64,000 bases of DNA, taken from sequence record OR062527; one strand, given 5' to 3'. This stretch comes from Escherichia phage vB_EcoM_11B_SA_NWU. Both the position numbers and the translations under genes were made by a program. Below, piece after piece: positions 54,752-59,525 of the stretch (position 1 is its first letter; each line of letters opens with the position of its first letter). Under the pieces are notes generated by a model. It was not told the DNA's origin, ran no database searches, and saw only the letters and a list, made by a program, of their open reading frames with translations.

Positions 54752-54779
54752 ATGGGGACCGAAAGGTCCCCATATTTTT
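54752..54779. terminator. bidirectional hairpin terminator between gp54 and 96-aa ORF
   Basis: AUGGGGACC-GAAA-GGUCCCCAU followed by T-run. Confidence 0.6.
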
Positions 54780-55068
54780 ATTTACGGAATGAAATAAAAG
54801 CAGCAACTGAAGCAACAGAGGTTTCTTCAATATAAACCTCAATTTTTACCGGAGCTTCTGACTCAAATTTACCTGTTACTACACCTTGGAAAATACTTTC
54901 AGTCTGTTCTGGCTTTGAAAAATTTTCAGAAGGAAAAATTCCAAACTTTTTATCGGTTCCGAAAATTTTAATAAATTCATCATAAACTGCTTCATTGAAA
55001 GCGTTATCAGCGGGAATAACGCCTTCAACGACGAGTTCTTGACCTAAAAAGCGCAAAGAAGATTTCAT
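54778..55068 (-). CDS. hypothetical protein 96 aa downstream of alt genes
   Basis: SD GAGGAA; early promoter GTTTAC-18-TATAGT upstream. Confidence 0.5.
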   Translation of the reverse strand: MKSSLRFLGQELVVEGVIPADNAFNEAVYDEFIKIFGTDKKFGIFPSENFSKPEQTESIFQGVVTGKFESEAPVKIEVYIEETSVASVAAFISFRK

Positions 55069-55099: not shown

Positions 55100-55129
55100 A
55101 CTATAACACAATACGAGGGACTTGTAAAC
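55100..55129 (-). promoter_or_regulatory. early promoter GTTTAC-18-TATAGT
   Basis: sigma70-like hexamers upstream of 96-aa ORF. Confidence 0.5.
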
Positions 55130-57186
55130 TACATTTTGAACTTTTTAGACATTCTGTTGATGTTAACCAAAGAAGCTAAGATTTGAGAAACTTCGCTTTC
55201 CTCTTCTTTTGATTCTTCTACAAGGAATTGATTAAATCCAGCCATTGGACGAACTTCACCAGTTTCCATTAGATGGTCACCATCATATACCGATTCCTCT
55301 AATTGTTCAGAAGGAGGAACAATCGTGCCTTCAATTAGATACTTATTATAAGCGGTTTCTTTCATCATGTACGTACTTACTTTATTAATCTTCAGTAAAA
55401 TTCCACGCGGCAAAATAACTTCAGCTTCGGATGGAAATCCTGATAAATGACCCGGAACGATAACTTTAACTCGTTCAGCTCCTTTAATTACCATACCTAC
55501 ATTAGTTTCAGCGTCTTCATTCGCATATGTAGAATGACTACCCATATGCATTAAATCTTCAGCATCAACTGAACCTTCTCCTTCACCAGAAAATACTGTT
55601 CCAGCGTCATCTAAAGCCATATAATTTTTACCATATTCACCGAAGATATTTGGCTTGAGTGAAGTAGATACAAAGTTCTTGAAATAGAACATTTTATTTT
55701 CTATATTATGACGTAAAGTTTTAAAAGTAACTTCTTGGCCACGGTAAAGTGTAGTTCCCGGAGGAAGAACTGAACCTTTAGCAAATGCAGAATCCAACGT
55801 CTCAATGTGCTTAATAGCACGTTCCATATATTCTTCACGTGTAGAATCAGGTTTACCTAAAAGGAACGAGTTCATTTCAACATATGAATCTGCGCAATAA
55901 TCTTCAATTACATCAGACTCAGCCTGAGTTAATCCTTTTGGAGTTACTTCAGTGCTTGCATATTCATATGCCTGAGCAGCAGATTCATCAATTAATTTAT
56001 AAATTCCATTCATTACAAATTGAATAATAGCTGTCTTTTCATCTGGTGTAGCTTTAGAACCTTTAACTAAATCATTGACAATTTTCTTAATAACATCAAA
56101 GCTATTAGAAATATTAATGTCAGCAAGATCGCTTAAAATTTTATCAGTTTTATAATCAAAGAATTCTTTATTCTTTAAATATTCTTGAGAACCTTGATAT
56201 GTTATATCGCTCTGCAGCTTGATAGATGGATCGCGTAAACGTGCATGGGCCAATGCAATATGATTTCGGAAGCTTTCGAGTTCATAATCACTAGATTTAA
56301 AACGAGAAGCACTTCTCATACCACCGATAGCTCCTTTGCTAAAGTTTGAACCAACCTGAATAACGCCAGAGTTCATTGGTCCTTCTGCTTTATATACCGG
56401 AACTTTAGATTCAAACTCTTGATATTTCTTAGCAGCGAAGCTATCACCCTGAAGTGAAGCATCAACAGTAGAATATTGAGCTTGTGCTGCTAATCGACGA
56501 CTAATTTTAGTTTTCTGAATAACAGCTTGATCCGTGCGCTTATCATTTTCTAAAGCAATAGAAGCAGCAACAGCAACAGCTTTAGGAACAGCATTACCTG
56601 TTTTAACGTCTACATAAACATCACCAACCTTTGATTCAACTTTTGTGAATAACTCGGTTGAAATAGGAGGTACACCTGGAATGTCTTCTAAATTGGCATT
56701 TTTACGGTAAACCATAATATATGCGTACTTTTTATCATAATCCCAGATTTCCTTTAAAAGAACATATCGACCTGCTCCTTTAGTACGTACTAAACGGTCA
56801 GCAATAACTTGCATTTGACGAGCTGCGCCATTTGTTTTACTTTTTAGTACGCGGAATAGGCATGCATCAATTTTATACTGCTTCATTGTTTGAAGAGCAG
56901 TATCAAAAACAGCATTAATGACGCCAATTGGATTTCCACCCAAGTTTTTAAGCTTAACTAATGATAGTTTCTCATTAACACCTATCATTACGATATGCAT
57001 CATTTTGTCGCCTGGCTTAACGTTTTTATTCGTATCACCGCCAGAGGTGTATGTACAAAATCTAAATCCAGGAAGCACGCTTTCTTCACCTGCTTGAATA
57101 GCAAAAATTTGAGGTATTTTATGCTTAGGATTTAAGTTAACAACCGGCGCCGAAGCGCCGTCAAATAATTCTGTAATAAGTTCCAT
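55129..57186 (-). CDS. Alt-like ADP-ribosyltransferase paralog (685 aa)
   Basis: N-terminus MELITELFD shared with alt; motifs YRGQ, FYFKNFVSTSL, SEAEVILPRG; translationally coupled to upstream alt. Confidence 0.8.
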   Translation of the reverse strand: MELITELFDGASAPVVNLNPKHKIPQIFAIQAGEESVLPGFRFCTYTSGGDTNKNVKPGDKMMHIVMIGVNEKLSLVKLKNLGGNPIGVINAVFDTALQTMKQYKIDACLFRVLKSKTNGAARQMQVIADRLVRTKGAGRYVLLKEIWDYDKKYAYIMVYRKNANLEDIPGVPPISTELFTKVESKVGDVYVDVKTGNAVPKAVAVAASIALENDKRTDQAVIQKTKISRRLAAQAQYSTVDASLQGDSFAAKKYQEFESKVPVYKAEGPMNSGVIQVGSNFSKGAIGGMRSASRFKSSDYELESFRNHIALAHARLRDPSIKLQSDITYQGSQEYLKNKEFFDYKTDKILSDLADINISNSFDVIKKIVNDLVKGSKATPDEKTAIIQFVMNGIYKLIDESAAQAYEYASTEVTPKGLTQAESDVIEDYCADSYVEMNSFLLGKPDSTREEYMERAIKHIETLDSAFAKGSVLPPGTTLYRGQEVTFKTLRHNIENKMFYFKNFVSTSLKPNIFGEYGKNYMALDDAGTVFSGEGEGSVDAEDLMHMGSHSTYANEDAETNVGMVIKGAERVKVIVPGHLSGFPSEAEVILPRGILLKINKVSTYMMKETAYNKYLIEGTIVPPSEQLEESVYDGDHLMETGEVRPMAGFNQFLVEESKEEESEVSQILASLVNINRMSKKFKM

Positions 57187-57189
57187 GAT

Positions 57190-59283
57190 TTATCCTTGAA
57201 CGAACTTGTAAGGCATGTTTGTAATATCTATGCAAGACGCAATAATTCCAAGAGATGATTCTACTTTCTGTTTAATATTTGATGAAACAAATGATGCAAA
57301 GTCAACTCTGTCTTCTATTTCAATATCACCTGTCATTGCAACCAATTCACCAGTTTCCATTAAATGGTCTCCGTCATAGATTACCGATTCGGTGAGCTCT
57401 TCTGTGGTCATAACTTCAGCTTGAATGAGTTTTGTATTATTAGATGTTGTTCCGTCATTATTAGAAGCATCAGTTATTTTATTAACCTTGACCATCAATC
57501 CGCGTGGTAGAATAACTTCAGCTTCTGTTGCTATTCCGAGACTTCCTGGATATACAACATTAACTTTATGAGCTCCATCAATTGCCCATCCTATTTGAAC
57601 TTTAACATATTCAGGATTTTCTTTATACGCTCTTATTTCGTTTGGATTAATAGTTATTCCTTCTTCATTTTTATCAACTGTTAATTCATTGCGAGCTTCT
57701 GGTTCTAAAAGACCAATACCAGCATGTGTGATTCCAAAACGTCCAAAAATGATAGGAGTTAAAGAAGTAGATACAAAATTTCTGAAGTAGAACACTTTAT
57801 TTTTAACTAACGCTTCATATATAGGAGCAGTCATACTTTGAGCACGATAAACTGTAATGCCTTCTGGTATACGGTCACCATTTTCAAAAGCTGAATCTAA
57901 GTTATTTATAGCAGATTCAATTTCTTTTTCACTCATTACATCGTATCGTTCTGGATTGTAACGACCTAAAAGAAGATTATTGATGTCAGTATATCCTGAA
58001 CCGCAATATTCTCTAATGCCACGCTTTTGTGATGGAGTATATTTAGAACCATCGCGTGCAATAGTAATATCAATCATTGGACCAGCACCAATTCCAGAAA
58101 AACTGTAAATCATTCGTTTGAGGAATTTAGTTTTTGTTGCGTTCCAGGAATTTTTAGTTATTTCTTCCCAGACTTCATCTGATTGTCCTTTACGATTTTT
58201 ATTATGATTAGCAAGCCATTTATCTTTATAATCTTCAAAGAATTGATTTACAGCTGCTGCGTATTTCTCTAAACATTTTATTGAAGTAGTTGGTTCATTT
58301 TTAATTGCATTAAAAATTACTTCTTTAATTTTTTCTGAAACTTCACCGACTTGACTCATTGGAAAGAATTTATAATCATAGTGAAGTTCATCTGCCGTTC
58401 CTTCGGCAATAATTTTTGCTGCCTTTGTTTTAGAAGCTAATGAATTAATTCCAATTTTCATTTCTTCTGCTTCGGGAATTAAAGGTGCAGTAGCTGGTTT
58501 ATTAAAATTGGCTGCTGTAGATTCATACTTCTGGAATAATTCACTTTCAAATCTAGAAGATTCCAATGACTGACTTTGTGCAATTGCTCTACGGGAAATT
58601 TTAACTTTAACGATTACAGCTTGGTCAGAACGTTTATCATTTTCTTGTGCAATAGATGCTGCAATTGCCTCATTTTTAGTTACTTGAGCACCAGTATCTT
58701 TATTGATATAAACATCACCGACCTTCGATTCAACTTTAGTAAAGAGCTCTGTACTAATTTCCGGAACTCCTGGAATGTCTTCTAGTGATACATTTTTGCG
58801 ATGTATAAGAATATATGCATACTTTTTATCGTAATCCCAGAGTTCCTTAAGAAGGACGTATCTGCCACCTGAACGACTGCGGATGAGTCTATCAGCAATA
58901 AGTTGAATTTGTCGAGCTTGACCGGCGGTTTTAGACTTAAGAATACGAAGCATACAGGCATCAATTTTATATTGACGCATTGTTTGCATTGCAACAGTAA
59001 AAACAGAATTGATATAATTAATCGGGCTTGGACCAAGACCTTTTAATTTAGCAATTGAACCTTTAGCAGTTAATGTAAAAGGAACAATATGCATCATTTT
59101 GTCGCCCATCTTTAAATCACGATTAGTATCACCTCCAGATGTATAGGTACATAAACGAAAGCCTGGTTGTTCAATTGCATCATCAACATGAACTGAAAAA
59201 ATTTGTGGTATTTTCTTCTTTGGATTTAAGTTTGTAATCGGAAGAGTAGTATCTTCGTCAAATAATTCTGTAATAAGTTCCAT
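57190..59283 (-). CDS. alt: ADP-ribosyltransferase Alt (697 aa)
   Basis: motifs YRAQ, FYFRNFVSTSL, ATEAEVILPRG; late promoter TATAAATA 24 nt upstream. Confidence 0.85.
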   Translation of the reverse strand: MELITELFDEDTTLPITNLNPKKKIPQIFSVHVDDAIEQPGFRLCTYTSGGDTNRDLKMGDKMMHIVPFTLTAKGSIAKLKGLGPSPINYINSVFTVAMQTMRQYKIDACMLRILKSKTAGQARQIQLIADRLIRSRSGGRYVLLKELWDYDKKYAYILIHRKNVSLEDIPGVPEISTELFTKVESKVGDVYINKDTGAQVTKNEAIAASIAQENDKRSDQAVIVKVKISRRAIAQSQSLESSRFESELFQKYESTAANFNKPATAPLIPEAEEMKIGINSLASKTKAAKIIAEGTADELHYDYKFFPMSQVGEVSEKIKEVIFNAIKNEPTTSIKCLEKYAAAVNQFFEDYKDKWLANHNKNRKGQSDEVWEEITKNSWNATKTKFLKRMIYSFSGIGAGPMIDITIARDGSKYTPSQKRGIREYCGSGYTDINNLLLGRYNPERYDVMSEKEIESAINNLDSAFENGDRIPEGITVYRAQSMTAPIYEALVKNKVFYFRNFVSTSLTPIIFGRFGITHAGIGLLEPEARNELTVDKNEEGITINPNEIRAYKENPEYVKVQIGWAIDGAHKVNVVYPGSLGIATEAEVILPRGLMVKVNKITDASNNDGTTSNNTKLIQAEVMTTEELTESVIYDGDHLMETGELVAMTGDIEIEDRVDFASFVSSNIKQKVESSLGIIASCIDITNMPYKFVQG

Positions 59284-59306
59284 GTTATCCTCTCTAGTGT
59301 TTATTC

Positions 59307-59314
59307 TATTTATA
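59307..59314 (-). promoter_or_regulatory. late promoter TATAAATA (alt)
   Basis: exact consensus 24 nt upstream of alt ATG; preceded by UUCG hairpin 59320-59337. Confidence 0.6.
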
Positions 59315-59339
59315 AAATTAAAGGCCCGAAGGCCTTTAA

Positions 59340-59525
59340 TTAATAGAGAGCTAAAAGAGTACGATATACTTCAAACTTTGGACCTTTTTCATATGGATCA
59401 AATCTTTCCGTGAATTCATCATATGCTAGTTTATCTGGGAATTCAAGAATAACCTGCGATACCGCAGTGGAAACATCTCCACCTTCTTTTTGAGCCACGA
59501 CAATTGTTTCTAAGTAAGCTTTCAT
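59340..59525 (-). CDS. hypothetical protein 61 aa
   Basis: ORF overlapping ligase stop by 4 nt. Confidence 0.45.
   Translation of the reverse strand: MKAYLETIVVAQKEGGDVSTAVSQVILEFPDKLAYDEFTERFDPYEKGPKFEVYRTLLALY

Follow-up and report, generated by a model that had tools for sequence, protein, structure and literature searches.

Tandem Alt-type ADP-ribosyltransferase genes, altA and altB, at the alt locus of a Tequatrovirus genome

Results and Discussion

The alt locus and its two genes

We examined the alt locus within a 64,000-nucleotide (nt) stretch of DNA from Escherichia phage vB_EcoM_11B_SA_NWU (sequence record OR062527; the whole stretch is termed the window), which represents a Tequatrovirus genome. 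The locus holds two adjoining and intact minus-strand open reading frames (ORFs) across window positions 55129-59283, designated here altA and altB, of which the second is the equivalent of the gene named "Alt2" in some related phages. An initial annotation of the window, made from the sequence without database searches, had given the ORFs as 57190-59283 and 55129-57186, with lengths of 697 and 685 amino acids (aa) and with MELITELFD at the start of both proteins, and each of these particulars was confirmed. It had further taken the ORFs for a diverged pair of Alt-type ADP-ribosyltransferase genes that share one late unit, and this was borne out: the full-length proteins are paralogs with 41% identity by BLASTP (E 9e-162), and both are recognized by Pfam PF03496 (ADPrib_exo_Tox), for which altA scored 129.8 bits (E 1.1e-37) and altB 72.2 bits (E 4.6e-20) against a curated cut-off of 23.4 bits. 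The Alt family profile phrog_802 covered residues 1-696 of altA (E 2.5e-272) and 1-685 of altB (E 3.2e-256), and the N-terminal domains are 99% (altA) and 68% (altB) identical to that of T4 Alt, so that both proteins resemble the Alt family over their full lengths.

The arrangement is that of an ordinary T-even alt operon in its complete form, i.e., terminator, late promoter, altA, translationally coupled altB, alt.-3 and terminator, and it occupies the usual Alt-family position between gene 30/alt.1 and alt.-3/gene 54. The T4-type late promoter sequence TATAAATA occurs 24 times in the window versus 9.6 expected, a count reached in 0 of 100 shuffles, and holds the same position before alt in phages T2, T4 and REP2; Dhakavirus JS10 carries CATAAATA there. 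The promoter motif had been placed correctly in the initial annotation, with a spacing to the altA ATG of 24 nt that we count as 23 nt; similarly, the Shine-Dalgarno sequence of altB was correctly read within the last codons of altA, and the gap between the altA stop codon and the altB ATG, given as 4 nt, is counted here as 3 nt. The junction sequence AAGGATAAATCATG is the same in T2 and T4, JS10 has AAGGGTAAATAATG, and a ribosome binding site for the second gene is annotated at this junction in phage Ac3. A second copy of TATAAATA lies within altA at 57903-57910 (minus strand, codons 458-461), ~720 nt upstream of altB, and could be an internal late promoter. This copy was considered as altB's own promoter and set aside as probably fortuitous, being present in T2 and REP2 and absent from T4 and JS10.

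Domain organization of altA and altB

Both proteins divide into four parts (Table 1). AlphaFold models, with mean predicted local distance difference test (pLDDT) scores of 74.5 for altB and 71.9 for altA, have the same layout in both, i.e., an alpha/beta domain at residues ~12-215, an all-helical region at ~250-410, the ADP-ribosyltransferase (ART) domain, and a low-confidence C-terminal tail in which pLDDT falls below 50 from residue 652 in altA, and exactly from residue 629 on in altB. The altA N-terminal domain (model pLDDT 70-88) is 68% identical to that of altB and is presumed to be a head-core association module. Identity between the paralogs changes by segment: it is ~68% over residues 1-237, ~17-26% over the gap-rich residues 238-458, 38-55% over the ART core (except for an indel-rich loop region, 519-574, between the STS and ExE motifs), and ~42% over the tail, which contains one strongly conserved motif.

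The middle of altA is 17% identical to that of altB, 29% to that of T4 Alt, and 65% to that of the JS10 protein alta; the middle of altB is 45% identical to that of JS10 altb. When the two middle segments were compared alone by BLASTP no significant similarity was obtained (E 3.5), in agreement with the initial description of the central regions as unrelated in sequence. Profile-profile comparison of the middle regions gave 51% probability (E 1.6e-4) with very shallow profiles, and the helices lie at nearly equal positions in the altA and altB models; the two middle regions are likely of common ancestry. Homologs 44% identical to the altB middle region were found by tblastn in 44 phage records. 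A phmmer search with the same region (residues 236-420, 55927-56481) against 50%-identity representative proteins gave 0 matches; this is unexplained, possibly arising from a cluster representative with a different middle region, and was not counted as evidence. A match of the altB middle to T3SchapCesA (E 0.039) fell under the Pfam cut-off and was dismissed as noise.

The active-site motifs are intact in both proteins, as first reported for the R-S-ExE signature, and loss of a catalytic residue was not seen in the alignment. They comprise YRAQ at 479 (altA) or YRGQ at 481 (altB), FYF(R/K)NFVSTSL with STS at 505 or 507, respectively, and (T/S)EAEVILPRG with EAE at 587-589 in both. The catalytic Arg, Ser-Thr-Ser and Glu-x-Glu are invariant in 21-23 family members (for altA, R480, S505, S507, E587, E589 and E632 in a 23-sequence alignment), and the motifs align with the YR and EYE of CdtA. 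Structure prediction gives an ART fold that resembles those of Vis, C3, VIP2 and iota toxin, and a sequence search of solved structures gave weak matches to the binary-toxin ART domain only, with no Alt structure among them. Among R-S-E ADP-ribosyltransferases, ExE in place of QxE is the arginine-specific signature; the motif thus predicts arginine ADP-ribosylation by both proteins. Besides PF03496, each full-length Alt homolog carries a precomputed match to Pfam PF26846, which presumably covers the Alt N-terminal region.

Table 1. Positions of genes, protein domains and signals at the alt locus (window coordinates, listed in the direction of transcription)
Feature	Position	Strand	Remarks
alt.1	59340-59525	-	61 aa; Pfam "Phage_blade" PF24647, E 6.8e-28
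Terminator-like hairpin after alt.1	59316..59341	-	11-bp stem, UUCG loop
T4-type late promoter TATAAATA	59307..59314	-	23 nt 5' of altA ATG (59283)
Shine-Dalgarno GAGAGGA of altA	59288..59294	-	4 nt from ATG; read from sequence
altA	57190..59283	-	697 aa; stop codon at 57192-57190
altA N-terminal alpha/beta domain, residues 1-238	58570..59283	-	Includes ITE4-6 prohead-protease site
altA all-helical variable middle, residues 239-410	58054..58569	-	Helices from AlphaFold model
altA ART catalytic domain, residues 411-632	57388..58053	-	R480, S505-T-S507, E587-A-E589; ends at LTE630-632
altA C-terminal propeptide, residues 633-697	57193..57387	-	Carries YDGDHLMETGE
Shine-Dalgarno AAGGA of altB	57193..57197	-	Within altA codons 696-697
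altB ("Alt2" equivalent)	55129..57186	-	685 aa; ATG at 57186
altB N-terminal alpha/beta domain, residues 1-237	56476..57186	-	With ITE4-6
CTAAAAAGT, upstream copy, left breakpoint	56839..56847	-	From comparison with T4
altB all-helical variable middle, residues 238-415	55942..56475	-	Model pLDDT 76-92, helices only
altB ART catalytic domain, residues 416-631	55294..55941	-	R482, S507-T-S509, E587-A-E589; ends at LEE629-631
altB predicted C-terminal propeptide, residues 632-685	55132..55293	-	With YDGDHLMETGE
CTAAAAAGT, downstream copy, right breakpoint	55140..55148	-	From comparison with T4
alt.-3	54778..55068	-	96 aa; Pfam DUF5498, phrog_1739; last gene of unit
Bidirectional terminator hairpin, alt.-3/gene 54	54752..54773	.	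Annotated terminator in Ac3

Prohead-protease sites and the C-terminal propeptide

Mass spectrometry has shown that T4 Alt is cut by the prohead protease gp21 after ITE-6 and LTE-619, with the loss of 63 C-terminal residues (PMC5694885), and ~40 Alt copies are present per T4 head (PMC9026906). At the motif level the aligned positions are ITE4-6 and LTE630-632 in altA, and ITE4-6 and LEE629-631 in altB; neither E6 nor the aligned E631/E632 varies between the paralogs or across the family. The initial annotation had suggested LITE near the start of both proteins as a possible processing signal, and it coincides with the mapped ITE-6 site of T4 Alt (PMC5694885). Just downstream of the C-terminal site, the strongest conservation in the C-terminal third is that of YDGDHLMETGE (altA residues 636-646, ~57346-57378; altB residues 634-644, ~55255-55287), which is invariant in 21-23 homologs; in altB, E631, Y634, D635, G636, D637, E641, G643 and E644 are invariant across homologs. 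Because this element is conserved and yet lies inside the part that gp21 removes from T4 Alt, the propeptide is probably functional by itself, for example in targeting, tethering or inhibition.

The first 28 nt of altA (59256-59283) and of altB (57159-57186), ATGGAACTTATTACAGAATTATTTGACG, are identical. Over the rest of the N-terminal domain DNA identity is ~69% with saturated synonymous divergence (dS ~1.5). The identical start suggests that the mRNA or the propeptide is constrained here, or it could represent a small gene-conversion patch.

Distribution in relatives and names in use

The 4.9-kb region of the locus is 99.2% identical to phage ECP52 and is covered to at least 80% in 368 phage records, many of them annotated with two Alt-like ADP-ribosyltransferases. 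The altB middle region was found in 445 phage records, in 401 of these at 90% identity or more, with T2 and T6 among them, and the pair is intact in ~400 of ~500 Tequatrovirus records (~80%), including T2, T6 and Bas37. The T2 genes have the same lengths as here (697 and 685 aa), and the T2 proteins are 97% and 98% identical to altA and altB, respectively; the same two values were obtained for Bas37 (KarlGJung, BASEL), where bas37_0033 is annotated "ADP-ribosyltransferase Alt" and bas37_0032 "Alt2". altB and the Tequatrovirus Alt2 copies (Bas37; T2, BBF63359) have the same length and the same upstream junction, with essentially no difference between them. In JS10 the pair is named alta and altb, with a stop-3 nt-start junction as in the window. 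The altb of JS10 and JS98 is the cross-genus ortholog of altB, with 45-57% identity in the middle, ART and tail segments; its N-terminal domain (JS10) is only 46% identical to that of altB, i.e., below the 68% of altB's own paralog altA. In phage 44RR a full-length alt duplicate was described by Nolan et al. 2006 (PMC1524935).

Thus the gene pair is already known, being deposited and annotated in hundreds of genomes, in some as Alt2 or altb, and as the product of a genome scan it is a correctly recognized, previously annotated feature and not a discovery. The unusualness implied by the initial annotation does not hold, as the tandem pair is standard in relatives (~400 records). Full-text literature searches gave no paper, biochemical or proteomic, characterizing the second Alt; they gave only annotation-level mentions (PMC1524935) and the supplementary tables of a HIDEN-SEQ study considered below. 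What is new here is the mechanism of altB loss in T4, the frequencies of the intact and deleted forms, the conservation in Alt2 of the two protease sites, the evolution of the pair module by module, and the link to transposon data.

Phage T4 has another alt allele and an altB remnant

T4 Alt (gpAlt, NP_049811) occupies the same position as altA (gene 30, alt.1, alt, then alt.-3 and gene 54), and the two genes have the late promoter, the upstream hairpin, R-S-ExE, and the ITE-6 and LTE motifs in common. The proteins are 99% identical over residues 1-262 and ~95% over the last 94 residues; identity falls to ~26-29% in the middle (263-410) and to ~65% in the ART domain, and altA is therefore the ortholog of T4 alt, but another allele. 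altB is 41-43% identical to T4 Alt overall, with an unrelated middle sequence. The glutamate-to-alanine mutant E577A of T4 Alt is catalytically dead (PMC11404850). In our translation of T4 Alt the ExE motif is E574-M-E576, so that E577 is presumably the second Glu of ExE (residue 576 here), and the difference looks like a one-residue numbering offset.

That reference T4 has a single alt had been noted in the initial annotation, correctly as regards full-length genes: one alt gene is followed by alt.-1 (NP_049810) and alt.-2 (NP_049809). The DNA of alt.-1 and alt.-2 matches, nearly base for base, the first ~350 nt of altB (altB residues 1 to ~117), with the frame split by a 1-nt deletion in an A-run; the remainder is interrupted by a 1,699-bp deletion bounded by two 9-nt repeats, CTAAAAAGT (Table 1). 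Judged from this alignment, T4 carries an altB pseudogene that arose by a microhomology-mediated deletion. A relation of alt.-1 and alt.-2 to alt was already recorded (T4 record; PMC1524935); the T4 annotation describes them as a partial duplication of alt, whereas the comparison made here identifies them as the remnant of a full-length paralog. The T4-type deletion junction was present in 91 of 498 records, so that most records have the intact pair.

Selection and modular evolution

Comparison of altB with its T2 counterpart gave a ratio of nonsynonymous to synonymous divergence (dN/dS) of 0.039 at dS 0.27, and of 0.029 for the ART domain, i.e., altB is under strong purifying selection. Across genera (JS10), identities for the middle, ART and tail segments were 65, 94 and 54% for altA-alta and 45, 56 and 57% for altB-altb, compared to 14-17% (middle) and 38-39% (ART) between paralogs. 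As these three segments are orthologous across genera, the duplication is older than the genus split. The N-terminal domains show the converse pattern, with 68% (here) and 66% (JS10) identity within a genome versus 42-46% between orthologs, which indicates, from these alignments, that the N-terminal modules have evolved in concert within a genome or have co-evolved with the head core of the phage that carries them; such a pattern is as expected of a docking module.

The altA ART domain shares 94% identity with JS10 alta versus ~65% with T4 Alt, the altA middle region falls into several discrete identity classes over 794 records, and T4-type alt alleles were found beside an intact altB, e.g., in phage APTC-EC-2A. 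From this mosaicism and co-occurrence of alleles we conclude that a variable cargo is swapped between conserved terminal modules.

Transposon insertion data for Bas37

Packaged T4 Alt leaves the head together with the DNA and ADP-ribosylates host proteins, among them the alpha subunit of RNA polymerase (PMC9503650, PMC5512222, PMC9026906). According to a 2025 preprint (doi 10.1101/2025.11.20.689424), T4 requires alt for the evasion of Mokosh type I, and Bas37 Alt, the protein 97% identical to altA, does not substitute for T4 Alt against this defence. The only experimental data that we found on the second gene come from HIDEN-SEQ of Bas37 in Extended Data Table 7 of the same preprint, where Alt2 is without discussion in the main text; the readings of the table are our own, and its last sheet was taken to compare K-12 deltaRM with Mokosh type I from its position and its differing control means. 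Insertions in Alt2 occupied 116 of 164 TA sites (saturation 0.71, "Intermediate") versus 164 of 179 for Alt ("Non-essential"), and mean insertion reads per site were ~44 for Alt2 versus ~200 for Alt and its neighbours (doi 10.1101/2025.11.20.689424). On clinical strain CFE331 the log2 fold change (log2FC) of Alt insertions was -1.56 (adjusted p < 1e-5) and that of Alt2 insertions +0.12 (not significant), and on Mokosh type I the values were -7.74 for Alt and +1.32 for Alt2, both with adjusted p < 1e-5 (doi 10.1101/2025.11.20.689424). The paralogs are thus not redundant, and their insertion responses are opposite.

Interpretation

Alt is the textbook case of host reprogramming by an enzyme that a phage injects along with its DNA. 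The suggestion in the initial annotation that the second copy is another injected effector, possibly with a different target, is plausible and agrees with the sequence data. We consider it rather probable that altA and altB both encode late-made, head-packaged, gp21-trimmed and injected arginine ADP-ribosyltransferases whose targets differ through the helical middle and the active-site loops. Each protein consists of a conserved ~235-residue N-terminal alpha/beta domain with a 6-residue propeptide ending in ITE, an extremely variable helical middle of ~170 residues, a C3/VIP2-type R-S-ExE ADP-ribosyltransferase, and a ~55-65-residue propeptide straight after LxE. Both would be made late and be taken into the prohead core via their common terminal modules, be trimmed at both ends by gp21, and be ejected together with the DNA; both would then ADP-ribosylate arginines of host proteins, with unlike target sets because the middle region and the STS-to-ExE loops are unlike. 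The present comparisons show the sequence features, their conservation and the purifying selection; processing, packaging and injection are known, from the literature, for T4 Alt only, and for altB we infer packaging, activity and targets. A fuller version, in which Alt2 is a second packaged and injected arginine ADP-ribosyltransferase with its own targets via the helical middle and also competes for docking sites in the prohead core, we give a little less than an even chance; if it is true, presence or loss of Alt2 would tune the target spectrum and the injected Alt dose, and alter the outcome versus defences such as Mokosh type I.

Several points weigh against two injected enzymes of different target range. 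Literature searches turned up neither virion proteomics nor enzyme assays nor identified targets for the second copy; the gene is dispensable to Bas37 in the laboratory (saturation 0.71) and is gone from the T4 lineage; and transposon insertions in altA may have polar effects on altB. The middle-domain models rest on shallow alignments (21-23 sequences, pLDDT 72-75), and I/L-x-E motifs are frequent (11 in altA, 7 in altB), so that the cleavage-site calls rest on positional conservation and not on the motif alone.

In an alternative reading, altB is an active late ADP-ribosyltransferase that is neither packaged nor injected; like ModA and ModB it would work inside the cell, here the producing cell late in infection, with its N-terminal domain otherwise used. 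The lack of any proteomic report of Alt2 in virions in the literature would fit this, and the silence of classical T4 work on altB is accounted for because T4 is without the gene. We consider this unlikely, however, since altB shares 68% identity with the packaged Alt in the N-terminal domain, keeps both mapped gp21 sites and the C-terminal propeptide motif, and depends on the same late promoter as altA, to which its translation is coupled. Were altB instead a redundant duplicate heading for loss, doing nothing distinct, T4 would be the end state, and the T4-type deletion in 91 of 498 records would be in keeping with this, as would the finding that, in the table sheets considered here, Alt2 was not required in K-12 or in five clinical strains. 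A gene without a distinct role would not be expected to show a dN/dS of 0.039 at dS 0.27, to have cross-genus orthologs with invariant catalytic residues, or to be intact in ~80% of records; moreover, Alt2 insertions gave a significant Mokosh type I phenotype of opposite sign to that of Alt, and their baseline representation was lower (~44 vs ~200 reads per site). We regard decay of a redundant copy as very improbable.

The role of altB could also be chiefly stoichiometric, in that it competes with Alt for limited prohead-core sites and so sets the injected Alt dose. The terminal modules common to Alt and Alt2 and the ~40 Alt copies per head (PMC9026906) are compatible with this, and Alt2 insertions were 2.5-fold enriched under Mokosh type I, where Alt is indispensable. 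Competition alone, however, leaves unexplained the invariant R/STS/ExE residues and the dN/dS of 0.03 for the ART domain, and we doubt that it is the main function; dose competition can accompany the preferred reading of two injected enzymes with unlike targets, and does not replace it.

Recent work has linked Alt to the way phages evade Mokosh type I and MazEF, and nearly all Alt experiments have been undertaken with T4, which belongs to a minority lineage without the second enzyme. Most T-even phages, therapeutic candidates included, encode and possibly inject two such enzymes and also carry one of several alt alleles, and the targets of Alt2 could explain why nearly identical phages differ in host range and in their sensitivity to defences.

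Flanking features

The hairpin at the end of alt.1, whose U-tract continues into the late promoter, folded at -14.4 kcal/mol (z -4.5), a value equalled by 0 of 200 shuffles; it is kept in T2, T4 and JS10 and is annotated as a terminator in Ac3. A terminator preceding alt is also recorded in PMC1524935. The consensus terminator scan did not return the hairpin upstream of altA, and direct folding confirmed it.

The 60-nt gap between altB and alt.-3 contains a sigma-70-like promoter match at 55100-55128 (minus strand; TTTACA, 17 nt, TATAGT, with an upstream TG; 10/12), which might give alt.-3 independent early expression; the sigma-70-like scan overall showed no enrichment versus shuffles. In T4, C-terminal extension mutations in alt.-3 lead to escape from the CmdTAC defence via blocked CmdA degradation (PMC11618068). 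In one of the comparisons on clinical strains, insertions in the Bas37 ortholog of alt.-3, bas37_0031, were depleted (log2FC -2.70, adjusted p 0.02; doi 10.1101/2025.11.20.689424).

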